Of a stretch of DNA of 64,000 bases, positions 3,151-54,814 are shown piece after piece. The first letter of the stretch is position 1; each line of letters begins with the position of its first letter. Made by a program: the position numbers and the translations under genes. Source of the DNA: a virus. Location of the stretch: IMG/VR virus record IMGVR_UViG_3300047470_000212, positions 1 through 64,000 of that record; one strand, written 5' to 3'. The notes under the pieces were generated by a model. That model was not told the origin of the DNA and did no database searches. It worked only from the letters and a program-made list of their open reading frames with translations.

Positions 3151-3402
3151 TCACAGTCCCAGCACCTCCTTCAGGCGCGTTGCGAACTCGTTGACGGTCT
3201 CCTCGCGGAGCCGGTCCTCGTGCATGTTGTAGTCGTCCTCGTCGTTCGCGGTGCGCTCCAGGAGCACTACGTCGCCGACTGAGATGGTCGTGGTGAACTC
3301 CCGGTAGCCGGTGAAGCCGCCGTCTCGCCATGTCTCAGTGGTGTTGACCTTGATCAGCGGCTCGGGGATCTCGATGGAGCCCCCGTAGGTATGAAGTGCC
3401 AT
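3151..3402 (-). CDS. hypothetical protein
   Basis: 83 aa ORF with GGAGG RBS; begins MALHTYGG. Confidence 0.65.
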   Translation of the reverse strand: MALHTYGGSIEIPEPLIKVNTTETWRDGGFTGYREFTTTISVGDVVLLERTANDEDDYNMHEDRLREETVNEFATRLKEVLGL

Positions 3403-9449: not shown

Positions 9450-9480
9450 GCGTGTTGGCCCTCCCGCTTGCAACCCGCTA

Positions 9481-10716: not shown

Positions 10717-10764
10717 GGGGTGTTCCTCGTTTCCGCGATTTGGTGGGCAGTGTAGGGCGGGTGG

Positions 10765-11097: not shown

Positions 11098-11143
11098 GGC
11101 GCGGCCTCCTGGTGTGGGGCGGGTGGTTGGGAAGTGCTGGGGG

Positions 11144-11491: not shown

Positions 11492-11566
11492 GGGGTGGCC
11501 CTCCTGGGCGGTGTGGTGGGAGGGGGCCGGAGCGTTTCCCCGGCCCCCGGGAACGTGGGGCGGGTG

Positions 11567-12313: not shown

Positions 12314-12438
12314 TTTCGGGGCTCCCTGTTGTGGGGCGGTTGGTGAGTGGTGCGGTGCCAACCTATCCCCGGATACGGCTTGTAAAGCCAGTTTCGGGGA
12401 TAGGTTGACAAGTCTTTATAAAGACGTGACCTAGGGCG

Positions 12439-12621
12439 CTAGAGGGTGCCGAACGAGCGGACGGCGAGAACGGCGATTCCCCGGGCGCGGTAGTCGGCCC
12501 GTATGGCCGTGTCGGCGTCCGCCAGGGAGGCCGCGCGGACGTGGCGCACGCTGGCCAGGGCGCGGGGGGTGGTGCTGCCCGGACGGGCGGGGAAGAGCAC
12601 TTGCAGCGCGTACGTGTGCAC
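12439..12621 (-). CDS. small hypothetical protein
   Basis: 60 aa ORF with AGGAGG RBS. Confidence 0.5.
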   Translation of the reverse strand: MHTYALQVLFPARPGSTTPRALASVRHVRAASLADADTAIRADYRARGIAVLAVRSFGTL

Positions 12622-12662
12622 GGCGCGGCCTCCTGGTGTGGGGCGGGTGGTGGTGGTGGTGG

Positions 12663-13649: not shown

Positions 13650-13687
13650 GTCGTGCGCTCCTTCGTGCGGGTGTGTTGGGAGGGCTG

Positions 13688-13716
13688 ACCTTTCCGCAGG
13701 GGGAAAGGCTTGTCAA
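13688..13716 (-). promoter_or_regulatory. housekeeping-sigma promoter (imperfect -10)
   Basis: TTGACA-N17-AAAGGT. Confidence 0.55.
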
Positions 13717-13795
13717 GCCCTTTGAGCACATCGGTTTACAAGTCGTTATGAAGCCGTGACCGGCAGTCCGGGGGGCGGTGTGTTCCCATGGACGC

Positions 13796-13850
13796 CGAAA
13801 GGCCCCCACCGGCCAGCGGTACGCGGTGGGGGCCTTTTGCATGCCCGGGG
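13796..13850 (-). terminator. stem-loop terminator, copy 1 of a 55-bp near-identical repeat
   Basis: AAAGGCCCCCACC...GGTGGGGGCCTTTT; second copy at 16018-16072. Confidence 0.75.
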
Positions 13851-15908
13851 TCAGACGGTGGGGGCGTCGCCGTCGCAGCCGACGGCCAGCAGCAGGCCGT
13901 CCCAGTCGGCAGTGGCCCAGCCCCGGCCACCGGCCCAGTCGGCGCCCTCGGTGAAGGCCTGGCCGAGCAGGTCGTAGGCGTCGGCGATGTTCATCCGCTC
14001 GACGTCCTCACCGAGGCGCACCCAGACGAACAGCTCACGCAGGTGCGCGAGGAAATCAAAATCCGACTGGTGCGCAGCCTGGAAACGCTCAGCCATTCCG
14101 GCCGCGCCGCCCTCGTACATCCCCAGAGGATTCCGGTTCAGTTCCAACGAGGTCTCCCGCGCAGAAATCGACTCGGTGTTCTGCGGGGACGCGGTGACGG
14201 TTTCCGGTGCGCGGTGAACGGGGGTGAGGGTCACAACGTCCCCTTCGGGCTTCACGATGCACACGTAGCCCGTGCCGTCGTAGGACACCAGGGTGTCTCG
14301 CAACTGGGTGCGGACGGCGACGACGTCAGCCGCGTAGTCGGGGGTGACCTCCCGGGGCTCCTGCGAGCGGCCCAACTCCCGGCGCAGTTCGTAGACGTAG
14401 GCGCTCGCGGTGCTGTCGATGGCAGCGCGGGCGATGGTGGCGGCCTCCTCGTCGCTGCGCCACTGGGCGCCGGTTACGCGGGTGTGGTCGTGCTCCTCGA
14501 CGAGCGGGGCCTCCTCGGCCGCCTGCGGGGCCTCCTGGGGCTCCTCGGCCACCACGGGCGCGGGAGTCTCCACAACGGCCGGAGCGGGCGTCTGCGGGGC
14601 CTCCTCGACGACGGGCGCGGGGGTCTCCTCGACGGGAGCCACAGCGGGCGCCGCAACCTTCTTGCGGGGGGTGCTCTTCTTCTTCGGAGCGTCGATCTCG
14701 TACGCCTTGGGCTCCGGCACGGCGGTCTCGACCAGGGTGCAGCGGGTGAGGACGGTTGCCTTGATGCCCTGGTACTCGTCGTGCTCCTTGACGGTCCCCC
14801 GGAAGGTGACGCGCACGCCCGTGTTCTCGCCGAGGGCGTTGTTGGACGCGAACCACTTCACGATCACGCCGGACGTCTCGTCGCGGACCTGGTAGAGGGT
14901 GGTCGAGCCGTACAGGCCGTCGATGTAGCGGATGGACTCGACCATGCCCGTGAAGGTGATGCGGGAGCCCTTGATGCCTGCGGCCTTGTCGGGCGCGGTG
15001 CCGATCCACTCGGAGGGCTTCTCGCTGCGCGCCTTGCGGATGAGGGTCTGCTCGTTGAAGCGGGCCCACGCCTGCGGGGCGGAGACGAGGATGCCGAAGT
15101 TGCGCGAGGAAGCGCGCTTGCCACCCGCGATGGCCTTCAGGTTGAGGACGTACTCAGACGTGCCGCTGAAGTCGTCGGAGAGGATGAACGCGCGGATCTC
15201 GGCGGCCTTGTCCTTGGCCTCGGCAGCGAGCGGGCGCATGGCCTCGGCGAACTCGCGGTCCTGGCGGGCCTTGCCGGGGTTGATGGCGTTGCGCACGAGC
15301 TGCACGGTCGGGGTGGCGTGGTAGTCCTGGGAGCGGACGAAGCCGAAGGCCTTGGTGCACGCCCAGGCGTAGGCGAGGACGGTGTCAGTGGACACGTCGC
15401 GGTCGCCCCCGCCGAAGCCGTAGAACTCCTTCTCCTCGTCGTCGTCGGCCGGGGTGGAGGGCCACGAGATGCCGGTGTCCCAGCCGAGGAAGTCCTTGAT
15501 GCACTGGCGGCCGATCTGCTTCTCTTCGCCGGTCTCCTCGTTCTTGACGAGGAAGGTCTCACGGCGCATGCGGTCCTTGCGGCAGTGGTCGCAAGCGCCC
15601 TCGCGCAGGCCGTCGCGGTCGACGGAGTGGACGCCGGGCGCGGTGCGCACGATCAGGCCCGCGTTCTCGTCCCAGTCCAGGGTGGCGAGGAAGGTCCAGC
15701 CGTTGTGCTTGGGGGCCTCGCCCGTGAACTCGACGTCGTACATGATCTCGACGACCTCGAAGCCCATGTCGTCCTCGCTCTTCACCTCGACCTCGGTGAC
15801 GTTGAGGTCCAGGCGGCCGGACAGGCCCTTCTTCGACGCGCGGGCGTTGATCTTCTCGATCTTCTCCAGCGTGTTGGTGAGCTGGAAGTGGTCGATGCGA
15901 GCGGACAC
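13851..15908 (-). CDS. large hypothetical protein (CxxC, possible OB-fold segment, Pro/Ala/Glu linker)
   Basis: 685 aa; CDHC and IGRQCIKDFLG; VTFRGTVKEHDEYQGIKATVLTRC resembles an OB-fold. Confidence 0.7.
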   Translation of the reverse strand: MSARIDHFQLTNTLEKIEKINARASKKGLSGRLDLNVTEVEVKSEDDMGFEVVEIMYDVEFTGEAPKHNGWTFLATLDWDENAGLIVRTAPGVHSVDRDGLREGACDHCRKDRMRRETFLVKNEETGEEKQIGRQCIKDFLGWDTGISWPSTPADDDEEKEFYGFGGGDRDVSTDTVLAYAWACTKAFGFVRSQDYHATPTVQLVRNAINPGKARQDREFAEAMRPLAAEAKDKAAEIRAFILSDDFSGTSEYVLNLKAIAGGKRASSRNFGILVSAPQAWARFNEQTLIRKARSEKPSEWIGTAPDKAAGIKGSRITFTGMVESIRYIDGLYGSTTLYQVRDETSGVIVKWFASNNALGENTGVRVTFRGTVKEHDEYQGIKATVLTRCTLVETAVPEPKAYEIDAPKKKSTPRKKVAAPAVAPVEETPAPVVEEAPQTPAPAVVETPAPVVAEEPQEAPQAAEEAPLVEEHDHTRVTGAQWRSDEEAATIARAAIDSTASAYVYELRRELGRSQEPREVTPDYAADVVAVRTQLRDTLVSYDGTGYVCIVKPEGDVVTLTPVHRAPETVTASPQNTESISARETSLELNRNPLGMYEGGAAGMAERFQAAHQSDFDFLAHLRELFVWVRLGEDVERMNIADAYDLLGQAFTEGADWAGGRGWATADWDGLLLAVGCDGDAPTV

Positions 15909-15946
15909 GGGAGCCTCCTGATGCGGAGCGGTTGTTGACGGGCACG

Positions 15947-15975
15947 ACCTTACGGAGGTGCTTACCGCTTGTCAA
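15947..15975 (-). promoter_or_regulatory. housekeeping-sigma promoter
   Basis: TTGACA-N17-TAAGGT. Confidence 0.75.
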
Positions 15976-16017
15976 TCGCTTCCGCGCAGCGGCTTTCCAT
16001 GGTTCTATGTGCAGACA

Positions 16018-16072
16018 CGAAAGGCCCCCACCGGCCAGCTCGACGCGGTGGGGGCCTTTTGCATGCCCGGGG
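16018..16072 (-). terminator. stem-loop terminator, copy 2 of the 55-bp repeat
   Basis: Identical to 13796-13850 except 3 loop bases. Confidence 0.75.
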
Positions 16073-16073
16073 C

Positions 16074-16535
16074 CTACTCGGCCTTGTAGAGGGCGCCTCG
16101 GATGTTGCGGCGCAGGAGGCGGTACAGGACGGACCAGCCGGTCTTCTTGTCCGGCGGGGCCGGGAGGCCGTGGTCGGCTTCCCAGGCCGCCTGCACTCGC
16201 CGGATCAGGGCGTTCCACTGGTTGCCGTCGATGAGCGGTGCGCAGGTTCCGCAGGCCATCCAGTCGCCCTCGTAGCCCTGCATCTTCCCGCTGGCCGGAC
16301 TACGGCCCGCCAGGAAATCCGCCACCGGCAGAACCCACTTTTCCGATACGAGATCGTCGTTGCAGAAGTCGCAGCGGCCCAGGACTTTTCCGTCCTCGGG
16401 TTTCACGGGAATTGCCTTGTGGCCGGAGAGGGAATCCTGCTCGTGGTGCTCCCAGGTCTCCTCCCCCGTACCCTTCGCAACGTTCCGCTCCAGGGGGCGC
16501 TTGCAGACCTTGCAGACCATCGGTGGGGTACTCAC
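16074..16535 (-). CDS. hypothetical Zn-finger-like protein
   Basis: CKVC, CDFC and CGTC pairs; GTG coupled to the upstream TGA. Confidence 0.6.
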   Translation of the reverse strand: MSTPPMVCKVCKRPLERNVAKGTGEETWEHHEQDSLSGHKAIPVKPEDGKVLGRCDFCNDDLVSEKWVLPVADFLAGRSPASGKMQGYEGDWMACGTCAPLIDGNQWNALIRRVQAAWEADHGLPAPPDKKTGWSVLYRLLRRNIRGALYKAE

Positions 16536-17134
16536 TGGGCGATCTCCTGCCCCGGGGAGAGGATGCGGAACCCGGTGCCGTCGTCGGCCGCCAGCTCGTG
16601 GCCGTCCTCCATGTCGGTGATGTGCGCGGCCAGCTCGCCGTAGCGCAGTCCGTGACGCTGCATCTCGTTGGTGAGGGTGCCCCAGGCCGCATCGTGGGCG
16701 GTGTCGGCGGTGCGCACCGTGCGCCACACCGTGCCCTCGTGGCGGTCCTTGATCTGCGCCCAGTAGGACGTGGCCTTGTCGGTGGCGTTGTCCAGGTACC
16801 AGTTCTTCAGGTCCGCGAAGAAGAGGGCCGTGGGGTCCGAGCTGTCCGGGTCGGGGAACTTCTGCTCGTGGCTGTCGCACAGCAGGGCGACGACCTGCTT
16901 GCGGGTGAGCCGGAGGTTGTAGGTCGGCTCCTCCGCCTTCTCCTCGACGGTGACGCGGAAGGTGCGGGTGGCGTCGGTGCCGGTGCCGTCGTTGACCAGG
17001 ACGTCCAGAGCCCAGGGGCCGCTCGCCTCCGGGTTGACGAAGTCGACGTTCAGCACGTCCTCCGTGCGCAGGCTCGGGCGGGCCGGGCTGGAGAGCATGT
17101 CGCCGATCAGCTTGCGAAGACCGAGAAGGTTCAT
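16532..17134 (-). CDS. hypothetical protein
   Basis: 200 aa ORF with AAGGAG RBS, after a promoter. Confidence 0.65.
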   Translation of the reverse strand: MNLLGLRKLIGDMLSSPARPSLRTEDVLNVDFVNPEASGPWALDVLVNDGTGTDATRTFRVTVEEKAEEPTYNLRLTRKQVVALLCDSHEQKFPDPDSSDPTALFFADLKNWYLDNATDKATSYWAQIKDRHEGTVWRTVRTADTAHDAAWGTLTNEMQRHGLRYGELAAHITDMEDGHELAADDGTGFRILSPGQEIAQ

Positions 17135-17176
17135 CTTTCGCTCCTTGTCAGGGCGGGGTGGTTGGTGACAGGGACG

Positions 17177-17205
17177 AACCTAGTCACAGCAATACGTGTT
17201 GTCAA
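17177..17205 (-). promoter_or_regulatory. housekeeping-sigma promoter
   Basis: TTGACA-N17-TAGGTT. Confidence 0.75.
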
Positions 17206-17219
17206 GCGCTATCGTGAAT

Positions 17220-17441
17220 CTACTTGGCAGCGGTGTGCTTGCGCTGGACGATGCGACCCTTGGGCTTCGGCTGCTCGACCTCCGGATCCCAGTTCGGCGG
17301 GAAGACGGGGACGATCACGACGTCGCTCATCTCCGGTTCGAGCTGCCGCTTGCGGTCCTCGGCGCTCGGCCGGTCGTAGCTCACGACGGACACCTTCCGG
17401 TGACCGTTGGCGTCGGTCCACAGGACCTTGAAGTTCTCCAC
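17220..17441 (-). CDS. hypothetical protein
   Basis: 73 aa ORF with AGGAG RBS. Confidence 0.55.
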   Translation of the reverse strand: MENFKVLWTDANGHRKVSVVSYDRPSAEDRKRQLEPEMSDVVIVPVFPPNWDPEVEQPKPKGRIVQRKHTAAK

Positions 17442-17450
17442 GAGGTGCTC

Positions 17451-17981
17451 CTAGTCGCCGAGCTGCTTGTGGCCCTGCGCGTGCAGCACCCTGTCGAGCA
17501 TCTGGATAGCGGAGTTGGCTTCGTATGTGGGGATGAGGCACTCGACCTGGCCGTAGAGCATCAGGCGCACCGTCTCGATCCCGGTCTCTTCGTCCTCGGT
17601 GACCTTCCACCCGGAGATGGCATCGGTCTTGCCGAGGTCTTCAAGGATCTTGATGGACTCCCCGGTGAGCCCGCCCGAGAGGGTGGCGATCAGGAGGGGG
17701 ACGGTGTCCTCTTCCATGATCCAGACGCTCTTCTCGCCCTCACCGTCCTGGGCGACGAGTCCCACGCACTTGTCCGGCCGCCCGGCGACCTGGACGTACT
17801 GGGCTCCACTCAGGTCGCGGGCGACGAACGGCTTCTTCGGTTCCCTGCTCCGCTCGATCTCGTGATTGTTCACGGCCAGGTCGCAGACCGCGAGCAGCAG
17901 CTCGTCGGCGCGGGGCCGATCGAAACCAGCCTCCAGCATGGCGTCCAGGGCCTTGTCGTAGGCGGTCGGTTCGTAGGTCAC
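17451..17981 (-). CDS. hypothetical protein
   Basis: GTG start after AGGAG. Confidence 0.6.
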   Translation of the reverse strand: MTYEPTAYDKALDAMLEAGFDRPRADELLLAVCDLAVNNHEIERSREPKKPFVARDLSGAQYVQVAGRPDKCVGLVAQDGEGEKSVWIMEEDTVPLLIATLSGGLTGESIKILEDLGKTDAISGWKVTEDEETGIETVRLMLYGQVECLIPTYEANSAIQMLDRVLHAQGHKQLGD

Positions 17982-17994
17982 AATGTGCTCCTGA

Positions 17995-18234
17995 TCAGAC
18001 GAGAGTGGTGGCGTTGGCGACGCGCGGGCATCCCTGGGAAATGTAGTCCTGCCAACTGACAATGTTGTTCCGCGTGGCCTGGATACGGGTCATGAGGAGT
18101 CGCTGCCTGCGCGCCGTCTTCTCGGCCGTCCAGCGCTTCTCCAGGGCCGACAGCTCACGCTTGCGAAGCCTGATCAGCTTGCGTGCTGCGGTCTTGCGCT
18201 CGTCGAGCTGGTGGGAACGGAACGGGCTGGGCAT
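17995..18234 (-). CDS. basic hypothetical protein
   Basis: 79 aa, AGGAGGAG RBS, first gene after a promoter. Confidence 0.6.
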   Translation of the reverse strand: MPSPFRSHQLDERKTAARKLIRLRKRELSALEKRWTAEKTARRQRLLMTRIQATRNNIVSWQDYISQGCPRVANATTLV

Positions 18235-18273
18235 CTTCGCGGCTCCTCCTGGTGTGGGGTGCTTGCAGGAGAA

Positions 18274-18302
18274 ACGCTAAGGGGACCGCCTGGTGGTGTC
18301 AA
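18274..18302 (-). promoter_or_regulatory. housekeeping-sigma promoter
   Basis: TTGACA-N17-TAGCGT. Confidence 0.7.
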
Positions 18303-18326
18303 GCGGTCCCCTGATATTGCTTGCGT

Positions 18327-18659
18327 TTACTTGTTGAGCATCTGCTCGGTCTCGTCTACCGTCTCGGCGACGGTGCCGAAGGCGTCCGTCCAGGCAGCGT
18401 TCACGGCCTCGTAGGGCAGCGGGTGATCGGCCAGGTTGACGCCGGGCGGTACGGGCCCGTCATAGGCGAAGGTGCCGTCCAGGGGCTCCCACTTCAGCCT
18501 GGCCTCGCCCAGCTCCTCGTTGAAGCGTGCGGAGTGCTGGCGGGCCAGCTCGGCGACCAGGGCGGGAGAGGGGCTGTCGTAGCCGCACTGGGAGGAGAGG
18601 AAGTCCGTCCACTCCTGCTGCAAGGTCGGGTAGTCGAAGCCGGGGAGCTGGTGGTTCAC
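18327..18659 (-). CDS. hypothetical protein
   Basis: 110 aa, AGGAGG RBS. Confidence 0.6.
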   Translation of the reverse strand: MNHQLPGFDYPTLQQEWTDFLSSQCGYDSPSPALVAELARQHSARFNEELGEARLKWEPLDGTFAYDGPVPPGVNLADHPLPYEAVNAAWTDAFGTVAETVDETEQMLNK

Positions 18660-18693
18660 GGGTACCTCCTGGTGTGGGGTGCTGGTGTGGTGG

Positions 18694-18858
18694 CTAGACC
18701 TGACGGGCGTTGATCACCGGGCCGACGGCAGCGCTCCCGTCGATGCGGCGGGTGTCGTCCTTGGGCGCCCAGTAGTGGCCCTTGTAGACGTGGCCCGGGT
18801 AACCCTCTTCGGTCTTCTTCAGGTGCCCCTCGAAGCTGCGGGCTCCGCACTTGCACAT
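18694..18858 (-). CDS. small hypothetical protein
   Basis: MCKCGAR start directly after the upstream stop. Confidence 0.45.
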   Translation of the reverse strand: MCKCGARSFEGHLKKTEEGYPGHVYKGHYWAPKDDTRRIDGSAAVGPVINARQV

Positions 18859-18860
18859 GA

Positions 18861-19259
18861 TCAGTTCTCCTCGTCCTCGATCAGCATGATGATCTGGGTC
18901 TCGGTCAGGAAGCGCTTCGCGGCCTCCTGCGTCAGGTGCTGGTGGACGCCATACAGGCCGGACTGCTGGGAGCGGTAGCTGAGCAACCAATCGGTCAGGC
19001 TCTTGCGCTGGTCCTCGATGCGGTCCAGGACCTTGTCGTCGTCGAACGGGCTGTCACCGTTGGCGTCCAGGCTCAGCTTCTCGGAGTAGGCGTTGGCGAC
19101 GGCTCGCAGCTCCATGAACTTCTCGAAGTCCATCACCGAGTCGACGCGGTTGGGGCCGGTCTCCAGCTTCTGCCGAAGGCTTTCGGCGAAGCCGAGGTAC
19201 GCGGTGTGCGCGCTCTTGGCGTAGGTGCGGACGCCTCGGATGGCCATGGCCTGGTTCAT
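18861..19259 (-). CDS. hypothetical protein
   Basis: 132 aa, AGGAG RBS. Confidence 0.65.
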   Translation of the reverse strand: MNQAMAIRGVRTYAKSAHTAYLGFAESLRQKLETGPNRVDSVMDFEKFMELRAVANAYSEKLSLDANGDSPFDDDKVLDRIEDQRKSLTDWLLSYRSQQSGLYGVHQHLTQEAAKRFLTETQIIMLIEDEEN

Positions 19260-19475
19260 GGTCGCTACTCCTGGTCTCGTATCGCTGCGTGCTTGGCAGT
19301 CTTGCGGGTGCGCTGCTTGCGCGGGCGGGAATCGTGACCTCCGGCCGCTCCGCTGCGCCGACGTTCCTGGACGGCGCGGATGTGCTCGGGGTCCTGCTGG
19401 GCGTTCATGTGTGCCTCCGGGGCCGTAGGGAAGTTCCCAGGTTACGGGTTCTTCCCTACGGCTTCAGAGTTACGT

Positions 19476-20333
19476 CTACCTGCGGCGGGCTGCGCGCTTC
19501 TTGGCCTCGTCGATGACCACCTCGGCGGTCTTGCCCTCCTTGTGGGCGATGGCCTCGGCAACCTTGTTCACGTCGCGGTGGGTGCCGTTGTTGCCGCGCC
19601 AGGCCTCGTACTGGTCGGCCAGCCAGGAGCGGGCGGCGGCCAGGGTCGCGATGGTCTGGAAGCGGTCGTGCGCGGGCTCGGTGACGAGGCCGTTCCGCGT
19701 CTGGCGCTGACGCTCGGGGACGCGCCAGTCGAAGACCTCAAGCGGGCTGCCGTCGGGGTTGGCGATGGCCTTGGCGGCCTTCTTCGCCTCGCGCTCGGCC
19801 TTCTTGGCTTCACGCTCCAGGCGGGCGGCCTTGCGCTCCGGCGCCTCCAGCTTCGTCTTCTGCTTGAGGATGTCGACCGGGGCCCACGGGAAGCAGACGG
19901 TGCACGCCTTCTCGCCCGCCAGCACGACCAGGTCCTCGGCCGACATGCCGGACTGCTCGACCAGCCAGGCGTACCGGGTGGTGGGGAAGCAGGTGTCGCA
20001 GTGCTCATCCTTGTGGACGTGACCGTTGCTGTTGTCGACCAGGTAGTACCGGGTCCAGCGGCGGTCGTTGTACTGCGCCTCGCGGGGGTACACCTCGGCG
20101 TCAAGGATTTCCCAGATGCGCTTCTGGAGGGCTTCGATCTCGGCGACCAGCTTGGCGCGGTTCTCCGGCGAGTGGGCCGGGAGCATGGACTGGTAGGAGC
20201 CGGGCTCGACCGCGTCGATACGGGACACCGTGGCGGTGAGGCGGTGCTGCTGGCTGGTCAGGTCGGCGATCTTGCCGTAGGCACCGAGGAGCGCGGTGTC
20301 GATCTCGACCGGGGTGGCGGTGGTGAGGTCCAT
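19476..20333 (-). CDS. hypothetical protein (His/Cys metal-binding motifs)
   Basis: GHVHKDEHCDTCF and ACTVCFP; AGGAGG RBS; after a promoter. Confidence 0.7.
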   Translation of the reverse strand: MDLTTATPVEIDTALLGAYGKIADLTSQQHRLTATVSRIDAVEPGSYQSMLPAHSPENRAKLVAEIEALQKRIWEILDAEVYPREAQYNDRRWTRYYLVDNSNGHVHKDEHCDTCFPTTRYAWLVEQSGMSAEDLVVLAGEKACTVCFPWAPVDILKQKTKLEAPERKAARLEREAKKAEREAKKAAKAIANPDGSPLEVFDWRVPERQRQTRNGLVTEPAHDRFQTIATLAAARSWLADQYEAWRGNNGTHRDVNKVAEAIAHKEGKTAEVVIDEAKKRAARRR

Positions 20334-20372
20334 CGTGTGCCTCCTGTTGTGGAGCGGTTGGTGACAGGTAGA

Positions 20373-20401
20373 ACTCTACGGAGGGCCCTACCCCTTGTCA
20401 A
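20373..20401 (-). promoter_or_regulatory. housekeeping-sigma promoter
   Basis: TTGACA-N17-TAGAGT. Confidence 0.75.
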
Positions 20402-20723
20402 GCGAAATCGGGTTACCGCTTGCGTCGATGTACTGCTCGATCTCGTAGCCCATGTTCAGGCTGTTCACGCGCTTCGCACCGATCGACTTCACGCGCAGTT
20501 CCAGGCGGGTGGTCCAGTCCGCTACCGCGTCCGGGGAGATCGGGCCGACGTTGCACTGGCGCAGCCACAGGATGGGGTCGAAGCGGTCGCTCGTGCCGGT
20601 GAGGGCGTCAGCGATGTTGAAGGCGATGTTGCGGCGCGCGTTGAAGTCCTGGTCGTCTGAGTCGGCGAGGGCGGCGGACAGGGTCTCGTAGTCGCTGCGG
20701 CTCATGTTGCGGGGCGCGGGCAT
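20388..20723 (-). CDS. hypothetical protein
   Basis: 111 aa, AGGAGGAG RBS. Confidence 0.6.
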   Translation of the reverse strand: MPAPRNMSRSDYETLSAALADSDDQDFNARRNIAFNIADALTGTSDRFDPILWLRQCNVGPISPDAVADWTTRLELRVKSIGAKRVNSLNMGYEIEQYIDASGNPISLDKG

Positions 20724-20826
20724 GGCGGGCTCCTCCTGGTGCGGGGATGAATGGTCGCGGGAAGCGTACGGGCCGCCCGGCTCAGGTGTCGAGTCGGACG
20801 GCCCGTACGCAGGGGGTGCGTAAGGA

Positions 20827-21057
20827 TCACGCGGCGGGGCGCTCCAGGTAGTACCACAGGCCGCTGTTCACCTGGACTGTGTAGCGGGCGCCGTCGGCGG
20901 ACTCGACCAGCCGAGCCTTGGGGTAGGTCGCCAGGGCCTGCCAGGCGCGGTCGGCGTCCACGGGGACCATCTCGCTACCGTTGTAGACACGGCAGGCGGT
21001 GAAGTCGGCCTTGATGGCTGCGATCTTCTTCGTGGCGGTGCGGGCGATGGTGCGCAT
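20827..21057 (-). CDS. hypothetical protein
   Basis: MRTIARTAT start after AGGAG. Confidence 0.55.
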   Translation of the reverse strand: MRTIARTATKKIAAIKADFTACRVYNGSEMVPVDADRAWQALATYPKARLVESADGARYTVQVNSGLWYYLERPAA

Positions 21058-21076
21058 GCTGGGGTCTCCTAGGGTC

Positions 21077-21931
21077 TCAGGCGGCGAGGGAGGTGCGCTG
21101 GCCACCGAGGGCCTTGGCGCTGCCCAGGCGGGCGGACTGGCCCGCGTTGTCACCGGCCACACGGGCGGCGGTGCTGTACGCGGTGGTGCGGCTGGAGCCC
21201 TTCCAGGAGCCCTTGGCGGTGGACGCCTTCGCGTAGTAGGCGCCGATCTCCTTCTTCTTGTCGAAGAGGACCAGTTCGGCGGTCACCTCGATCTCGTACT
21301 CCACGCCGTTCTCGCCCGTGGTGGGCAGGGTGTAGACGTTCTCCTTGGCCGCCTCCAGGGCCTCGCGGCGGGCGTCCCACAGGCGGGAGGAGATTCGCCG
21401 GGTGAAGGCGTCGTAGAAGTTGGCGCGGGCGGTGCGTCCGTCCAGCGAGCGCTCTTCCAGGTCCTTGTAGGTGCCCCAGGCGTCGCGCTTGGTCACCTGC
21501 CGCAGGACCTTCTCCTGCTTGTACTCGCCGGTCTTCAGCCAGGCGTTGGCGGCCTCGGTCATCTGGTACAGCAGGGAGGCGTACAGGACCTCGACGACCT
21601 CGATGTCCGACGGCATGCCGAAGGCGATCACGAAGGTGGAGTTCATCGCGATGTTGACCTTGACGTCGTTGTTGTCCGCGATGGCGATGAACAGGTTCAC
21701 CAAGCGGGCGTTGTTGTTCTTGCGGGGCTGGCCAATGGTGATGTGCTTGTGGGTCGGCTGCTCGCGCTGCTCCTTCTTCGCGGTGTGCTGCCGGGCCACG
21801 GCGAGGTCGATGCTGCCGAGGGTGGCCAGGGACTGCGCCTTCTTCATGTAGGTCGCGGCTTCCTCGGGGGTCGAGGCGTTCTCGGCCTTGGCGAGGATCT
21901 TGGCCAGCTTGTCGAGCATGCGGTCAGCCAT
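21077..21931 (-). CDS. DUF2786 domain protein (Rv0184-like)
   Basis: N-terminal LDKLAKILAKAENASTPEEAATYMKKAQSL; FGMPSDIEVVEVLYASLLYQ; RANFYDAF. Confidence 0.75.
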   Translation of the reverse strand: MADRMLDKLAKILAKAENASTPEEAATYMKKAQSLATLGSIDLAVARQHTAKKEQREQPTHKHITIGQPRKNNNARLVNLFIAIADNNDVKVNIAMNSTFVIAFGMPSDIEVVEVLYASLLYQMTEAANAWLKTGEYKQEKVLRQVTKRDAWGTYKDLEERSLDGRTARANFYDAFTRRISSRLWDARREALEAAKENVYTLPTTGENGVEYEIEVTAELVLFDKKKEIGAYYAKASTAKGSWKGSSRTTAYSTAARVAGDNAGQSARLGSAKALGGQRTSLAA

Positions 21932-21970
21932 CGTGGGCTCCTCCTGTTGCGGGGGCGGTTGATGAGGTAG

Positions 21971-21999
21971 AACTTACGGGTTTCGGTATTGCTTGTCAA
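21971..21999 (-). promoter_or_regulatory. housekeeping-sigma promoter
   Basis: TTGACA-N17-TAAGTT. Confidence 0.75.
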
Positions 22000-22013
22000 G
22001 CAATTCTCTGGAC

Positions 22014-22352
22014 TTACTTGCGAGGCTGTCCACCGCTGGGGATGCCGACCACGCGCTTCCCCTGGCGGTAGTCCCAGGTCTGCTCGTGGACGCGGTCGGC
22101 CTCGAACTCGTCGTAGGTCTCCTGCACGGCCTTGATGACGTCCAGGACGGTGTCGTACGGGCCGCCGGAGCGGGTGGTCAGACGCGGCGCCGAGATGTCG
22201 AAGTGCCAGCCGACGTCGTCGGCCGTGATGTCGTCCTCGGTGCCGAACTCGACCACGGCGTCCTCACCCACGCGCCAGATGGACCCGAGGGAGCCAAAAC
22301 GGTCGGTGACCTGGAGGTTGTCCGGGTCGTCAGTGGTCTTGAAGGTCAGCAT
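22014..22352 (-). CDS. hypothetical protein
   Basis: 112 aa, acidic. Confidence 0.55.
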   Translation of the reverse strand: MLTFKTTDDPDNLQVTDRFGSLGSIWRVGEDAVVEFGTEDDITADDVGWHFDISAPRLTTRSGGPYDTVLDVIKAVQETYDEFEADRVHEQTWDYRQGKRVVGIPSGGQPRK

Positions 22353-22362
22353 GTGGTGCCTT

Positions 22363-22884
22363 TCAGGCGGCGACGGGGGCGGCGAGGCGCACACCGTGGC
22401 GGGTGTAGGAGTCGGTGAGCAGGAGGCCGACCTCCGGCCCGAGCAGTTCGGTGACCAGGTGGAGCATGGTCCGCGTGAACTCGGCGCCGTGGGTCTGGGT
22501 GCTGCGGGTCAGGTGGTGGGCGATCTCGTGGATGATGACGATCTCTCGCATGGCCCACGAGATGCCGCTCACGTGCGGCGGGACGGCGATGATGGCGCCC
22601 CACGGCTCATAGTGGGCGAAGCGGCTCCCCTTGCGGGCCCGGATCGTGATGGGGCGCTCGGCGCGGGCGTAGTCGGCCTTGACCCAGTTGAGGGCCAGGA
22701 CCGCGTCCACGTAGCGCTGGACGCCGTCGATGTCGCCGAACTTGCGCTCGGCCGGGACCAGCAGGCTGGAGCCGTAGAAGTCGAAGGTGCGCACGTCGGT
22801 CTTGGCAAGGGAGTCGAGGATTTCTCGCACGAACCGTTCGGCGTCGTAGACCTTGGAGACCTGCATGTCGCGAGTGGTGCCCAT
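22363..22884 (-). CDS. HEXXH metallohydrolase, Rv0185/TIGR04338-like
   Basis: RDMQVSKVYDAE, ERKFGDIDGVQRYVDAVL, WAMREIVIIHEIAHH, HGAEF. Confidence 0.75.
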   Translation of the reverse strand: MGTTRDMQVSKVYDAERFVREILDSLAKTDVRTFDFYGSSLLVPAERKFGDIDGVQRYVDAVLALNWVKADYARAERPITIRARKGSRFAHYEPWGAIIAVPPHVSGISWAMREIVIIHEIAHHLTRSTQTHGAEFTRTMLHLVTELLGPEVGLLLTDSYTRHGVRLAAPVAA

Positions 22885-22931
22885 CGGGTGCTCCTCCTGG
22901 TGGGGGGCGGTTGGTGTGTTCGACATGGGAA

Positions 22932-22959
22932 ACAATACTCAGGAAGCCGTAATCGTCAA
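22932..22959 (-). promoter_or_regulatory. probable promoter overlapped by tandem AAGCCGTAATCG repeats
   Basis: TTGACG-N16-TATTGT. Confidence 0.55.
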
Positions 22960-23037
22960 GCCGTAATCGGAAAGCAGTAAGCCGTGAGCTGCGTCACATA
23001 CGCGGCCCACGGCTTACCGGGTTGACTGGCTATGAAA

Positions 23038-23436
23038 TTACTTGGTAGACCTTGGCGCTTCCGTCACCGTTTCCTTTGGGCACGGGACCTTGACCTGCAC
23101 GGAATGCGTGTGCGCCAGCCCATACACCGGTGCGTAAGGCGTGGCCGACGACGTAGGTGCAGGTATTGCGGGCGACGGCCCGATCACGAGCGATACCTTG
23201 CACGTGCCCGAGGACTTCGACTTCGATTCCTTCGGGGTTTTCGATGGGAGATACCGCGTCACGGTAGGTACGGGCTGCGGATCGGAATCCCCTTCTGCCG
23301 CCGGAGAATCCGACCGGGAATTCTGGGTATGAAGCCCGTCGAAATCCTGCTGCGGAACCACGGAAAGTCCGATAGCCGGTACTGCGAGAATTCCGATTGC
23401 GGCCAGGGCGACTTTGATGCGCTGGAATGTGCTCAT
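23038..23436 (-). CDS. putative secreted/membrane protein
   Basis: Hydrophobic N-terminus, Ser/Pro/Thr-rich body, visibly lower GC. Confidence 0.5.
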   Translation of the reverse strand: MSTFQRIKVALAAIGILAVPAIGLSVVPQQDFDGLHTQNSRSDSPAAEGDSDPQPVPTVTRYLPSKTPKESKSKSSGTCKVSLVIGPSPAIPAPTSSATPYAPVYGLAHTHSVQVKVPCPKETVTEAPRSTK

Positions 23437-38874: not shown

Positions 38875-39007
38875 AAGAGACCTCCAGAAGCGTGGCGAGG
38901 AGATTGAACTTCTCGTGGGCCCGGCCCTGGCGCCGGGAGTACCGGACGCCAAGGACCAGGATGTAAATGGCTGCTAGACCCAGCAGCACGGAGAGCATGG
39001 CCACCAT
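38795..39007 (-). CDS. small membrane protein
   Basis: ATG overlaps the recA stop; N-terminal TM. Confidence 0.4.
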   Translation of the reverse strand: MVAMLSVLLGLAAIYILVLGVRYSRRQGRAHEKFNLLATLLEVSYGGHVEEEPEAGEAGGGTPRRDGKCR

Positions 39008-40194
39008 CAGGCGGCCTCGGTATGAAGCCCGTCGGTCTCTTCGGGCTTGGGCCGTCGGCTGACCTTCTTGGTTCCTGCGGTCTGGGCGGCGTCGAGGTCG
39101 TCCTCGGAGATGCTTCGCTCGTCGGCGTGCGTGGACGCGGCCAGGACCTGCTCGTAGAGGTCTTCCTGAAGAGTCAGGTCCTGGCGGAGCCGGTCGAGCA
39201 TGGGCTCCTTGCCCTGCCAGCGCAGAACCGGCTTTCCCTTCTCGTCGAATTCCCCGTTGTCGATCTCGAAGTAGGCGCCCTTGCGCTTGATCACGTCGAA
39301 GAGAATGCCCATGATCATGATTTCCTTGACGGTGTCGAAGTCACCGCGAGCGAAATTCAGGAACGGGGCGGAGCGGAAGTAGGCGTCGATCGTTGCGACC
39401 TGCTGCGGGGCGGCCGACTTGTTCTTGATGGTCTTTACCTTGATGACCTGGCCGACATTTACCTTGCCCTTTCCGGGCCGGGCTTCCTGAATCCACTCGT
39501 CGCGCCGGACTTCCACCCGGGTGTAGAAAGCGTAATTCTTGGCGTTTCCACCGGGAGTCGTGGTCGGCGTACCGTGCGGGGAGAACTTACCGATCGCGTC
39601 GCGGTACTGGTTGATGACGATTCCGAGCAGCGGTCGGTCGTCGGGGTCGGTCATGGACCGCTTGGTCGCGGCGCCGGACTTGCGGAAGAACTTGCCGGTG
39701 AGGCGGGCGCCGAGCGCCATGGTCGCCTCGTCCATGTCCTTCTCGGATTCCTCGTCCGGAATGAGGGCCGGGTAGGAGTCGAGCACGATCATGTCGACCG
39801 AGCGGGACGTCGCGAAGTCGAGCATGGTCTGGTAGGCGAATTCCATGGCCTGGGTCGGGACCACGATGACGCGGTCGTTGTCGACGCCCAGCGCCTCGGC
39901 CTGGTCGGTGTCGTAGTGCTCTGCGGCGATCCACAGGCAGGTGAAGTTCGGGTCCTTCTTCTGGTTGGCGGCCAGCGTCTTGTAGACGATGAACGTCTTG
40001 CCGTGGGACTCGCGGCCGATGACCTCGACCCACTGGTTGCCCGGCCAGCCGCCACCGAGGGCGATGTCCAGGGAGAGGGAGCCGGAGGTGAACCGCTTGG
40101 CCACCTTCATCTCGGAGGCGAAGCAGACGGCGCCTGCACCGTGCTCCTTGTTGACCTTGGCGATGAGAGCGAGGGCGTCCTTGTTGATGCTCAA
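39007..40194 (-). CDS. recA: RecA-like recombinase
   Basis: SGSLSLDIALGGG, GRESHGKT Walker A, IVLDS Walker B, INQYR, TTPGGNAKNY. Confidence 0.95.
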   Translation of the reverse strand: MSINKDALALIAKVNKEHGAGAVCFASEMKVAKRFTSGSLSLDIALGGGWPGNQWVEVIGRESHGKTFIVYKTLAANQKKDPNFTCLWIAAEHYDTDQAEALGVDNDRVIVVPTQAMEFAYQTMLDFATSRSVDMIVLDSYPALIPDEESEKDMDEATMALGARLTGKFFRKSGAATKRSMTDPDDRPLLGIVINQYRDAIGKFSPHGTPTTTPGGNAKNYAFYTRVEVRRDEWIQEARPGKGKVNVGQVIKVKTIKNKSAAPQQVATIDAYFRSAPFLNFARGDFDTVKEIMIMGILFDVIKRKGAYFEIDNGEFDEKGKPVLRWQGKEPMLDRLRQDLTLQEDLYEQVLAASTHADERSISEDDLDAAQTAGTKKVSRRPKPEETDGLHTEAA

Positions 40195-40223
40195 CAGGGG
40201 CCCCCGTAGGTATGAAGTCGCAT
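40191..40223 (-). CDS. putative 10-aa leader ORF MRLHTYGGPC, coupled to recA
   Basis: AGGAG RBS before ATG; TGA overlaps the recA TTG (TTGA); contains CTT-CAT-ACC in frame. Confidence 0.5.
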   Translation of the reverse strand: MRLHTYGGPC

Positions 40224-40352
40224 GTGGTGTTACTCCTGATCCGATAACGGCAATGCCGTAACGAAGAACCGGTAGTCCCTATACCGTAATGGTGAAGGAA
40301 CTACCGGTCCACTCATGTATCAACTAGTCAGAGCAAGATCTTTTGGGAAGTT

Positions 40353-42311
40353 TCAGGTGGTCACGAGGTCGACGACCTCACACGCCCCTGCGACGCACGC
40401 CAGTTCCTGGGAGCCCACGGTCTGGTCGTAGGTCTCGTAGAAAGCGAGGTCCGACCACTCAACGCGGTGCTCCTCAGTGGCCTGCGCCTCGTACTCCTCC
40501 TTCGTGATCTCCGTGTACGGCGCCTGCACGTACGTGTGATCGCTGTAGGGGAGGAAGGAGACACCACTGATCTCGTCCAGGTGCTCCCAGACCCACTCGC
40601 CGACCTCGGCCCACTCGTGCTCACGGACGCTGATGGTCACCGAAGGCTTGTGCTCACACCAGTGCCGCTGATAGGCCAGCCAGATCTCCAGGTGCTCGAT
40701 CGCGGAGACGTCCTCCCGCACCAGGGCCGTGTCGCTGGCCCGCTGGGGGAAGGTGAACACCCACGCGGAGGAGTTGTAGGCGTCCTCCTCGTGCGGGATC
40801 CCGGCGTCGATCATCACGAACGCGATGGGGTCCTTCTTGTCCACGCGCACACGCCGCTCGTAGAAGCGGGCGTGCTTGGTATGAAGCCCGGACTCGCAGT
40901 CGACCAACTGGGAGACGGTGCCGGAGGGCTTGACGCAGGTGATCGCATCCGAGGACGGGATACCGATGCGCTGGGCCTCGGTCTCGTTGGCGACGCGTGC
41001 CGTCAGGCGAAGGTCGGTCAGCGAGAGGGACGTCAGTCCCATGCCCAGGCTGCCATTGGTGAACTGGTTGCCGAAGACACCGGTGAGGCTGACGCCGAGG
41101 AGTCGCTCCTCCTCCGCGTTCTTGCGCCACTCCTCACGCAGGTACGGGTAGTCCGTCAGCGTGCTCTGCCAGGTGCCGAGGATGGCCGCCAGGCGTACCT
41201 TGCGCTCCAGGTCCTCGACGGTGTCCTCCGGCCGGACGACGACCTCGGACAAGTTGCAGAAACTGAACGGCCGCAAAATGATCTCGCTGCACGGGTTGGT
41301 CCCGTAGTCGGTGTCGGCCGACCGGTGCCCGTACTCAGCGGCCTGACGCTGGGCTGCACCACGGTGGAAGATGCCGCGCTCACCCGAGCCGGACGCGACG
41401 ATCGAGTCCCACTCCTGGTTGAAGTCCTCGTAGCGCATGCCGTCGTAGTAGACCGCACTGTTGTTGGCGAGGGCTCGGTAGGCGTGATCGACCCACCACT
41501 CCCCTGCCTTCGCCTGCGCCATCTCCTGGTCGTCCAGGTCGGACAGGGAGATCATCGCCGAGCGCCGGACGCCACCGACCACAACGACGCTGGCTATCTT
41601 GCACGCCAGGTCGTGGACCTCGATCGGACGGAACTGGCGGCCCTTGGCGCCGTGGAACAGCGCGGTGGTGAAGTTGAACAGGTCGTCGAGCGGACCCGGT
41701 CCGGAGGCTCGCCCTCCGAAGGTATGAAGACGGGCGCCCGCCGGTCGCACCTTGGACAGGTCCCACTGCCGTACTTCACCGGCCCACAGACCCTCCAGCA
41801 GCGAGCGGAAGGCCAGTCCCCAACCTTCCTTGCTGTCCTCGACCACGATCACGTCGGAGGCAGCCACCAGGGCGTCGGGGACGGCGGGGAGTTGGTCGGT
41901 GTACTTCTTCTCGACGCTGTAACCGACGCCAGTGCCGTTCATGAGGATGTAGAGGAGTTCGTCCAGGGCGCGGGCGTCCTGCAACGGCAGGTACGAACAG
42001 TTGAAGCCCGCGATATTCGAGCGGTCCAGGGCAGCACCGGCAGTCATCACCGCGCGCATGGACGGCATGACCTCGTGGGTTAGCACGGCCTGGCGGACGG
42101 CCTCGACGACCTCCGGCTCGGGGGTGTAGTCGTGCTTGTTCTTCAACTGGCCGATCATGAAGCCGACGTAGCGGTCCACGGTCTCGGTCCAGGTCTCGCG
42201 GCGATTCGCGTCCTCCAGCCAGCGGCTGTATCGGCTCTTCGCGATGAAGGAGCGGTAAGGGTCGGCGATGTCGCCGGAAGGGGTGAGCAGGGAGGTCACC
42301 AGGAAATCCAT
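40353..42311 (-). CDS. nrdJ: class II (adenosylcobalamin-dependent) ribonucleotide reductase
   Basis: MPSMRA, FNCSY, VVVGGVRRSA, GTNPCSEI, CNLSEV, TCVKPSGTVS, WCEHKPS, C-terminal CVAGAC. Confidence 0.92.
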   Translation of the reverse strand: MDFLVTSLLTPSGDIADPYRSFIAKSRYSRWLEDANRRETWTETVDRYVGFMIGQLKNKHDYTPEPEVVEAVRQAVLTHEVMPSMRAVMTAGAALDRSNIAGFNCSYLPLQDARALDELLYILMNGTGVGYSVEKKYTDQLPAVPDALVAASDVIVVEDSKEGWGLAFRSLLEGLWAGEVRQWDLSKVRPAGARLHTFGGRASGPGPLDDLFNFTTALFHGAKGRQFRPIEVHDLACKIASVVVVGGVRRSAMISLSDLDDQEMAQAKAGEWWVDHAYRALANNSAVYYDGMRYEDFNQEWDSIVASGSGERGIFHRGAAQRQAAEYGHRSADTDYGTNPCSEIILRPFSFCNLSEVVVRPEDTVEDLERKVRLAAILGTWQSTLTDYPYLREEWRKNAEEERLLGVSLTGVFGNQFTNGSLGMGLTSLSLTDLRLTARVANETEAQRIGIPSSDAITCVKPSGTVSQLVDCESGLHTKHARFYERRVRVDKKDPIAFVMIDAGIPHEEDAYNSSAWVFTFPQRASDTALVREDVSAIEHLEIWLAYQRHWCEHKPSVTISVREHEWAEVGEWVWEHLDEISGVSFLPYSDHTYVQAPYTEITKEEYEAQATEEHRVEWSDLAFYETYDQTVGSQELACVAGACEVVDLVTT

Positions 42312-49698: not shown

Positions 49699-49985
49699 TG
49701 GGAGTACTGCCGATCGAACTGCCTGCTGGTGCGCGGGCGCCGGGCGAAGGGGACGCCGGGGGTGTAGTGCCCCTCCTGGATGTGGTCCGGGTTGGCGCAC
49801 ATCCGTCGCGTGCACGCGCGGTGCTTCTGGCTGCCGCCTCCGGTGATGAAGGACAGCAGGCTCTGGCCCTTGTAGGTGGGCCGGGTCGCGGTGGACTGGA
49901 AGATCAGGCAGTCGGTGTCCGGGTCCGGCTGGACGCGGTCCCAGAAGGCCTGTCCCAGGTGTTCGTAGCCATCAGGCGGAAGCAT
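49692..49985 (-). CDS. HNH-type (His-Me finger) nuclease-like protein
   Basis: FWDRV...DCLIF...HRAC...CANPDHI. Confidence 0.6.
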   Translation of the reverse strand: MLPPDGYEHLGQAFWDRVQPDPDTDCLIFQSTATRPTYKGQSLLSFITGGGSQKHRACTRRMCANPDHIQEGHYTPGVPFARRPRTSRQFDRQYSQC

Positions 49986-50031
49986 TGGCGGCCTCCGCCC
50001 AGGTATGAAGCCGGTTGTTCATGGGGTGCAT
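49972..50031 (-). CDS. putative 19-aa mini-ORF MHPMNNRLHTWAEAANASA
   Basis: ATG overlaps the primase TGA; runs over the HNH start; CTT-CAT-ACC in frame. Confidence 0.35.
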   Translation of the reverse strand: MHPMNNRLHTWAEAANASA

Positions 50032-53702: not shown

Positions 53703-54770
53703 TCAGGACCAGTAGTCCTCGTTGAACCTGTTGTTCTCCACCTCGTCGACCTTGTCAGCCTTGCCCAGTCGCTGGGTCAGCAGCCCACGGGCGGCAAGGA
53801 AGTCCTTCCAGGCGACCACGTTGTCCGAGCGCTGCCAGGAGGTGGACCAGTAGGTGATGATCATCTGGCGTACCTCTTCGCGCCCAAGGCCCTGGGCCAT
53901 CCACCGGCCGAAGGTCCCAGTCAGGGCTCCGAGGTTGGTGGAGCCGGGGACCGGGTGACCTACTTCCCCGGCCCGGTGGTCGAAGAATTCCGCCAGTTCC
54001 TCCGAAGGCCTCTTGGAGCGCTTCTTAGGAGTTCGCCGGGCCGGAGGGGCCAGGTCGCCATCCGAAGCCGGGAGACGGGCGGCCAGGGACTCTCCTGGAT
54101 CACCGTCACCGATGGCCTGGGATACCACGTAGGCCGGATCGAGTTCCCGCTCGGCCTGCTCCTGCTCCAAGGCCTCCTGCTTCCGGGACTTCCTCTTGCC
54201 GCCAGGACCCCGGAGGGGGCGTACCGCATTCCAGCCCTTGGCTCCCGGCCTGGGAGTCTCCTCGGCATCGTAGAGATCCGACCGCGCCGACTGGCGCGGT
54301 GGAAGAGACGTAGTCTCTTCTATTTCTCTAGTAGTACTAGTTAGGTAGTTAGGGGTTGGGTGCACTCCAGTGCAGGGTGCAATATTTGCAGGGTCCTCTG
54401 GAGTTGTTATGTCACAACTACCTTCGTCGACCCCTGCATTATTTGCAGGTGTAGTTCTTGCACCCTTCTCGGGCTCCGGAATCCACTCTTCGATGGGGAG
54501 AATCCGGCGCACAGCGGACTTGTACCGCAGGGACTCCAGAGGCCTCTCCTCGTCGGAAACGGACTCGATGATGCGACGCTCCTCCAGGTCCCGCAGGACG
54601 TTGTAGGTCTGCCGCTCCTTGATGTTGGCCTTGCTGGCGATGGTTGGTACTGAAAGCCAGCACATCCGGAAGTCGTCATCCGCTGCGTCGGCCATGGCCA
54701 GCAGGACCAGTCGGGATGCAAGTCGGGTGTGCTTGCTCCGCATCACCTCGCCCATGATGATTACGCTCAC
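53703..54770 (-). CDS. replication initiator-like protein with N-terminal wHTH
   Basis: RLVLLAMADAADD...CWLSVPTIASKANIKERQTYNVLRDLEE is typical of phage replisome organisers; lies upstream of the DnaC-like gene. Confidence 0.75.
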   Translation of the reverse strand: MSVIIMGEVMRSKHTRLASRLVLLAMADAADDDFRMCWLSVPTIASKANIKERQTYNVLRDLEERRIIESVSDEERPLESLRYKSAVRRILPIEEWIPEPEKGARTTPANNAGVDEGSCDITTPEDPANIAPCTGVHPTPNYLTSTTREIEETTSLPPRQSARSDLYDAEETPRPGAKGWNAVRPLRGPGGKRKSRKQEALEQEQAERELDPAYVVSQAIGDGDPGESLAARLPASDGDLAPPARRTPKKRSKRPSEELAEFFDHRAGEVGHPVPGSTNLGALTGTFGRWMAQGLGREEVRQMIITYWSTSWQRSDNVVAWKDFLAARGLLTQRLGKADKVDEVENNRFNEDYWS

Positions 54771-54814
54771 TCGGCGACTCCGAGGAAGCGATAAGTATGA
54801 AGCGATAGCGTCAT
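54767..54814 (-). CDS. putative 15-aa leader ORF MTLSLHTYRFLGVAE, coupled to the initiator
   Basis: TGA overlaps the initiator GTG (GTGA); CTT-CAT-ACT in frame. Confidence 0.45.
   Translation of the reverse strand: MTLSLHTYRFLGVAE

Follow-up and report, generated by a model that had tools for sequence, protein, structure and literature searches.

Several described systems bear on short ORFs and repeated short signals of the kind considered here. In translationally coupled upstream ORFs and leader peptides, a short ORF with its own ribosome-binding site ends in a stop codon that overlaps the downstream start (ATGA- or TGATG-type coupling), and in attenuation-type leaders of the trpL or ermCL kind the position of the ribosome selects between alternative terminator/antiterminator or sequestering folds. 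The stoperators of Cluster A mycobacteriophages such as L5 and Bxb1 are 13-bp DNA sites bound by the immunity repressor, with tens of asymmetric sites per genome that are oriented with transcription and exist in lineage-specific variants (PMC6550527, PMC9283540). In Streptomyces, bldA/TTA control uses a single rare codon read by one dedicated tRNA to mark a subset of genes. The start-associated sequences of Cluster K mycobacteriophages are phage-private short motifs repeated at many genes and linked to translation, with unknown function; they lie upstream of start codons and include the ribosome-binding site (PMC3203893). Finally, adjacent codons decoded by wobble (inhibitory codon pairs), or tiny ORFs with their own ribosome-binding site such as the lambda bar minigenes, can affect elongation or tRNA pools, although neither is known as a genome-wide motif that switches between lineages.

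Here we examined a ten-codon ORF in front of recA in a Streptomyces phage. The window analysed is the stretch from position 1 to 64,000 of IMG/VR record IMGVR_UViG_3300047470_000212, that is, the first 64 kb of a 107,080-bp phage genome with direct terminal repeats and 64.6% GC, in which nearly all genes are on the minus strand. On this strand AGGAG is followed by nine bases and then by ATG CGA CTT CAT ACC TAC GGG GGC CCC TGT TGA, with the ATG at 40223-40221 and the TGA at 40193-40191, the latter overlapping the TTG (40194-40192) that opens a 395-aa ORF. A profile search identified this ORF as RecA (PF00154, E 8e-44; 150 bits against a cut-off of 27, covering residues 11-273) and the upstream gene as a B12-type ribonucleotide reductase; DNA polymerase A, an SNF2 helicase, DnaB, a DnaG-type primase and an HTH_36 protein lie nearby. 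The features of the locus, together with related sites elsewhere in the window, are as follows.

40191..40223, minus strand: ten-codon leader ORF, MRLHTYGGPC plus TGA stop.
40233..40237, minus strand: AGGAG ribosome-binding site of the leader, 9 nt before the ATG; an AGGAG, GGAG or GGAAG at 8-13 nt is kept in relatives.
40209..40217, minus strand: motif copy CTT-CAT-ACC (CTTCATACC), codons 3-5 of the leader; invariant in all CAT-type relatives and reading CTT-AAT-ACC at the same place in AAT-type relatives.
40200..40206, minus strand: CGGGGGC, a possible ribosome-binding site for recA (GGGGG at 40205-40201, 6 nt before the TTG) and the 5' arm of a predicted stem that encloses the recA start.
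40170..40176, minus strand: GCCCTCG, the 3' arm of that stem, in recA codons 7-9.
39007..40194, minus strand: recA, with a TTG start overlapping the leader stop as TTGA.
39019..39027, minus strand: second motif copy, six codons (motif's CTT included) before the recA stop, which itself overlaps the next ATG as TGATG.
40266..40310, minus strand: conserved long hairpin followed by a T-rich tract, between nrdJ and the leader, which looks like a terminator.
40353..42311, minus strand: nrdJ, a class II ribonucleotide reductase, with two in-frame motif copies at 41729 and 40886.
3151..3402, minus strand: an 83-aa ORF whose N-terminus MALHTYGG shares a 19-mer with the leader.
54767..54814, minus strand: a 15-codon mini-ORF, MTLSLHTYRFLGVAE, carrying the motif; its stop overlaps the GTG of the next gene, an HTH_36 replication protein.
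49972..50031, minus strand: bridging mini-ORF carrying the motif, with TGATG overlaps at both ends, downstream of the DnaG-like primase gene.

The initial annotation had described the ten-codon ORF, its AGGAG, its stop/start overlap with recA and the identity of the 19-mer at 40200-40218 to 3379-3397, and on each of these points we find that the observation holds. The 19-mer match is exact, with 0.02 matches expected by chance, and an 18-mer of it sits at the start of the same 83-aa gene in relatives L141 and L143. Two 18-mers, CTTGATACC and CTTTATACC, also gave hits in unrelated viral contigs, but these are single copies and by our own estimate about the number expected by chance for that pattern. 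One detail needs correcting: recA was said to have no clear ribosome-binding site of its own, yet an invariant GGGGG lies 6 nt upstream of its start in all 10 aligned relatives. The accompanying interpretation, that recA translation may depend on ribosomes passing CTT-CAT in a leader-peptide gate and that the motif must be translated, is borne out only in part. The second claim is strongly supported by the comparisons below, whereas a gate on recA remains a plausible hypothesis.

The nearest named relatives are Streptomyces phages BRock and Alone3, at about 48% RecA identity with the same gene order and 52-53% GC, while the viral contig collection holds many close relatives at 83-99% RecA identity. 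One relative is a prophage of about 110 kb in Streptomyces sp. NPDC002088, and the genome under study carries a tyrosine integrase; the phage is therefore a temperate Streptomyces phage. Conservation of the mini-ORF among these phages had been proposed beforehand as a check, and three architectures were found. In the split form, as in this window, nine sequence variants each have a start codon, one variable codon, CTT CAT ACC, TAC or TGC, GGG GGC, two variable codons and a TGA overlapping TTG or GTG; each has exactly 10 sense codons, although codons 2, 6, 9 and 10 vary. In the Streptomyces sp. NPDC002088 prophage, which is CAT-type, the same ATG and motif run in frame into recA as MPLHTGGGPDKEAL. 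In a sister lineage, comprising all AAT-type phages, ATG NNN CTT AAT ACC is in frame with recA as MSLNTSAGGPDKEAL and variants of it. The fused forms equal the split form minus 11 nt, and the recA TTG of the split form aligns with the ancestral start codon, that of recA in distant relatives that have no leader. The leader ATG is thus a working start codon in this clade, since in the fused forms it is the recA start, and the mini-ORF is a conserved unit that is very probably translated.

We considered whether nothing special is present, the mini-ORF being an assembly indel and really the recA N-terminus, or a chance ORF with the motif a compositional or repeat artefact. One extra G in the G5C4 run would indeed fuse the ORF in frame with recA, and fused forms exist in relatives. 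However, the split form recurs in independent metagenome assemblies with nine different sequences, the fused forms differ from it by an 11-nt deletion and not by one base, and the motif statistics given below are far beyond chance. We regard this reading as refuted by the comparisons.

As compared to coupled upstream ORFs, the leader shares its own ribosome-binding site and start, a stop overlapping the downstream start that is conserved in relatives as TTGA or GTGA, and a downstream start within a predicted stem that a terminating ribosome would open. It differs in that its peptide sequence is not conserved but nine nucleotides of it are, in that the same nonamer recurs in frame about 40 times across the genome, and in that relatives can fuse the leader to the gene without losing the motif. 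In the predicted fold CGGGGGC pairs with GCCCTCG in a 7-bp stem, which fits coupling; however, the stem is invariant in 10 sequences and shows no covariation, its 3' arm is constrained by coding, and the G-run persists in the fused forms, where no start needs to be unmasked. This was the only stem predicted around the recA start and no alternative terminator/antiterminator pairing was found, so that, as far as these predictions go, the analogy to an attenuator lacks a defining feature. The leader alone would be an ordinary kind of element, a coupled upstream ORF; the signal it carries resembles stoperators in number, orientation and lineage specificity and bldA/TTA control in using rare codons, but differs from both by its codon-phase lock.

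The core CTTCATAC of this signal, CTT-CAT-AYC, occurs 28 times in the window, all on the minus strand, against 0.42 expected. Genome-wide it occurs 39 times on the coding strand and once on the other, and is the most abundant 8-mer of the genome. The lone opposite-strand copy lies in frame near the start of an opposite-strand ORF, and the same holds in three further genomes; the motif therefore follows the mRNA and not a DNA strand. The codon pair CTT-CAT occurs 35 times against 0.65 expected, and Leu-His-Thr is spelled with other codons only twice. From codon usage frame 0 should hold 12% of chance occurrences, yet 36 of 36 assessable 7-mer sites are in frame 0, and in an AAT-type genome the count is 33 of 33. 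Across 11 genomes there are 390 sites; of the 373 that lie in a long frame-0 open stretch, 346 have frame 0 as the frame with the highest local GC3 by a crude measure. The third codon is ACC or ATC and a purine precedes the motif, so that the unit is R-CTT-MAT-AYC.

Each of the 11 genomes (six CAT-type and five AAT-type) uses one variant only. CAT-type genomes have 35-39 copies of CTTCATAC and no CTTAATAC, whereas an AAT-type genome has 37+1 copies of CTTAATAC and no CTTCATAC. Most sites are orthologous and differ only at the fourth letter. On a RecA tree the motif-bearing phages form one clade (100/99 support) and the AAT phages one sub-clade (86/92 support). Outside this clade, five relatives with 55-66% recA identity have 0-1 copies, and neither this motif nor another enriched motif was found in BRock or Alone3. 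In the genome of the prophage host, 36 of 61 copies lie in the prophage, the other 10.6 Mb holds 25, and the reversed control pattern finds 11 copies genome-wide; the signal is private to the phage. Where a site is lineage-specific, the other lineage often encodes the same amino acids with preferred codons: CTT-CAT-ACC-TAC in one lineage against TTG-CAC-ACC-TAC in the other, for instance, or CTT-AAT-ACC-TAC against CTG-AAC-ACC-TAC. New sites thus arise by synonymous recoding, and at least six were gained within the CAT lineage, all in frame 0. The background supply of Leu-His-Thr/Ile or Leu-Asn-Thr/Ile tripeptides is only 2-4 per proteome, and most sites therefore cost amino-acid changes. Non-standard decoding of CAT was ruled out: at variable positions distant homologues show K, Q, R, D or E, and at the one site where His is conserved in distant homologues (nrdJ, 40886) the AAT lineage has no motif but keeps CTG-CAC.

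In the 11 genomes 17 sites lie outside long ORFs, at no fewer than five different loci. All 17 are in frame in small ORFs with a start codon 2-25 codons upstream, most often ATG-NNN-motif, and in 15 of them the stop overlaps the next start. Two AAT-type genomes have a minimal six-codon ORF consisting of GAGGAG, six bases, and then GTG GTT CGG CTT AAT ACC TAA. A site that acts as DNA would not need a start codon and a ribosome-binding site, and this is the strongest support for the view that the motif must be translated.

Alternatively, the motif might be a stoperator-like binding site, on DNA or on nascent RNA, for a lineage-specific phage regulator, the frame lock then being a by-product of coding constraints and the recA leader only an ordinary coupling ORF that happens to be a cheap place to put a site. 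The 35-48 asymmetric sites per genome, oriented with transcription and including the flipped copy in the oppositely transcribed unit, resemble stoperators in number, orientation and lineage specificity as described in PMC6550527, and both occur in temperate actinophages. Sites are also enriched near gene ends (by our count 13 of 48 lie within 25 codons of a stop, against about 11% expected). For the AAT variant the other two frames are nearly unusable, as frame 2 would contain TAA and frame 1 the very rare TTA, and part of the frame lock could therefore be a coding constraint. For the CAT variant, however, frame 2 (NCT-TCA-TAC) is about as available as frame 0, yet none of 48 sites uses it, and neither the frame-0 gains nor the intergenic mini-ORFs are what a DNA site indifferent to reading frame would require. 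The sites also differ from stoperators in being 9-10 nt long and almost all inside coding sequence, and no reading-frame lock is known to us for stoperators. No matching repressor was identified: the clade-specific HTH_17/DUF2637 protein at 3454-4203, the one such protein compared in this way (the genome also encodes an XRE-DUF5753 protein), does not covary with the motif type, its recognition helix being the same in CAT-type and most AAT-type phages. We consider this reading, in which binding by a regulator would be hypothetical, unlikely, the frame lock and the mini-ORFs arguing against it, although it remains a serious rival.

We favour, tentatively and with a probability of roughly 0.45, the reading that the ten-codon ORF is a translated leader and that the ribosome itself senses the signal in frame. 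In this view ribosomes would load at the AGGAG/ATG, read CUU-CAU-ACC as codons 3-5, terminate at the UGA that overlaps the recA UUG and restart there after melting the stem that encloses the recA start, such that recA synthesis is coupled to leader translation. The main role of the leader would be to hold, in a translated context at the head of the recA cistron, one copy of the clade-private signal R-CUU-MAU-AYC. The most likely and most economical mechanism would be a decoding slowdown at two consecutive rare, U-ending codons, each read through a G34-U wobble pair and followed by AYC, which would tune or gate expression of replication, recombination and some late genes. What our analysis demonstrates is the anatomy of the locus, its conservation, the frame lock, selection at the nucleotide level and the one-letter switch between lineages; translation of the leader, its occupancy by ribosomes, coupling to and gating of recA, sensing by the ribosome and pausing are inferred from sequence alone, and recA may also initiate directly from its own GGGGG. 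A plain slow-codon model explains neither why each lineage uses CAU or AAU exclusively nor why the flanking CUU and AYC are fixed, and no pausing or peptidyl-tRNA drop-off has been shown for this motif. In contrast to start-associated sequences, the motif lies inside reading frames and is locked to the codon phase.

A serious rival, although we also judge it unlikely, is that the motif is the in-frame target of a sequence-specific trans-acting factor that acts on translating ribosomes, perhaps a phage- or prophage-encoded ribosome-dependent RNase or a translational repressor, possibly setting a form of translational immunity between lineages. The CAT and AAT lineages would then differ because the factor changed its specificity, and the recA leader would simply be a site where it can control recA. 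The switch is strict and all-or-none, in the way phage polymerase/promoter or repressor/operator pairs diverge, a fixed 9-10 nt unit fits a dedicated reader better than a generic slow codon, and the phage is temperate. A scan for residues fixed differently in the six CAT-type and five AAT-type genomes gave three leads only: an 80-aa weakly HicA-like protein with 35% such positions against a genome mean of 4.3%, a 64-aa protein with 31%, and a ProQ_C-like protein present only in CAT-type genomes. The most diverged small proteins lie at 93411-93653, 99080-99274 and 7223-7615. However, the HicA match is below the Pfam cut-off and is supported by neither a search of solved structures nor the protein atlas, HicA toxins are described as acting independently of translation, the 64-aa protein has no family, and these candidates evolve fast in any case. 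Clade-specific and lineage-specific genes gave no informative Pfam or PHROG match, and no RelE/ParE, RF-1 or TGT domain was found in the genome. Nor is there an evident reason why a phage would keep about 40 self-targets.

Taken furthest, and here we are doubtful, these Streptomyces phages might use a private three-codon signal, CUU-MAU-AYC, that works only when a ribosome reads it in frame and is recognised by a dedicated reader, a change in whose specificity (C to A at the fourth letter) split the clade into two translational specificity or immunity groups. Leader and bridging mini-ORFs would then exist to deliver the signal at chosen cistron boundaries, and this would be a new class of cis-regulatory element, defined by codon phase. 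If the nonamer is truly sensed in frame, it would represent a genome-wide regulatory signal written in codon spelling rather than in protein sequence or in untranslated DNA, with a specificity able to switch between sister lineages. In our limited literature search we found no description of such a motif, and a search with the motif string returned only unrelated primer hits. Natural controls already exist in the CAT-type and AAT-type relatives, the split and fused recA leaders, the sites that differ only by synonymous codons and the CAT-type prophage in a sequenced Streptomyces genome, through which the control of translation by codon context in Streptomyces could be addressed directly. The result would also matter for annotation, since tiny ORFs like this one are routinely missed, and for engineering actinophages, where codon optimisation would silently erase the signal.

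As in bldA/TTA control, rare codons in a high-GC Streptomyces setting mark a subset of genes, and some of these phages carry a tRNA for the key codon. CTT makes up 8% of Leu codons and CAT 14% of His codons, and roughly a third to a half of those CAT codons lie in the motif (35 CTT-CAT pairs in called genes and 48 CTTCATA sites genome-wide, against 100 CAT codons). Unlike the single TTA codon, however, the motif is a fixed three-codon unit decoded by ordinary tRNAs. Pairing of the motif with host 16S rRNA was also considered, but no complement with fewer than 2 mismatches was found, which is chance level. An extra, unusual 86-nt tRNA(GUG) with a long variable arm occurs in 4 of 6 CAT-type and 0 of 5 AAT-type genomes, whereas tRNA-Asn(GUU) is in all of them; its absence from two CAT-type genomes, and the lack of any GTT version, rule it out as an obligatory reader. 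In the viral collection this tRNA was found only with the GTG anticodon, and it shows compensatory stem changes between two phages.

An 86-nt tRNA with a GUG anticodon lies beyond the window, and it has a long variable arm, a genomic G at -1 and C73. Its acceptor, variable-arm and T stems show compensatory changes between this phage and G002, a second phage, so the RNA looks functional. The tRNA occurs only in a CAT-type sub-clade. A CAT-type relative (locus L147) sits as a prophage of about 110 kb in Streptomyces sp. NPDC002088, at about 64-183 kb on contig C18 of that host genome (G011); this fixes the host genus and offers a genome-sequenced strain that could be used for experiments if it is available. 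The features of this phage considered here are located as follows.

Genome 101737-101822 (minus strand; L067:938-1023, locus L067 covering this part of the genome): the 86-nt tRNA with the GUG anticodon.
Genome 93411-93653 (minus strand; L069:9411-9653, locus L069 likewise covering its part of the genome): an 80-aa protein with a weak HicA match.
Genome 96685-97778 (plus strand; L069:12685-13778): an XRE-type HTH_31-DUF5753 regulator followed by a DUF397 protein on the opposite strand.
Window 7223-7615 (minus strand): a Phage_ProQ_C_like protein.
Window 5158-23327: a region with no perfect motif copy.
Window 40266-40310 (minus strand): a long hairpin with a T-rich tail between nrdJ and the leader.

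In the AAT-type genomes G004 and G014 (among loci L180-L196; minus-strand offsets 37814 and 26575) we found a minimal 6-codon ORF that consists of a ribosome-binding site, GTG, two codons, CTT AAT ACC and a stop, and this ORF seems to exist only to carry the motif. A CAT-type phage represented by the 13-kb locus L040, with 7 motif copies, and the shorter locus L041, with 4 (see also loci L139 and L142), carries a single CTTAATACC at the recA C-terminus. This is probably a recombinant segment derived from an AAT-type phage, and it is the only mixed genome seen.

The 80-aa protein with the weak HicA match ends in CTT-CAT-ATC-TAA and, of all proteins, has the most residues fixed differently between CAT-type and AAT-type genomes; no partner gene was identified. 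The Phage_ProQ_C_like protein (PF24203, E 6e-17) lies in the motif-poor early region, and is present in at least 5 CAT-type genomes and in no AAT-type genome. The region without a perfect motif copy extends over about 18 kb, and it is also the most variable between relatives and holds many lineage-specific small genes. The pairing of an XRE-type HTH_31-DUF5753 regulator with a DUF397 protein is typical of Streptomyces, and it could be part of lysogeny control. The hairpin between nrdJ and the leader is conserved in both lineages, and in more distant relatives an inverted repeat lies at the same position and overlaps what looks like a TTGACG-N17-TAGAGT promoter.
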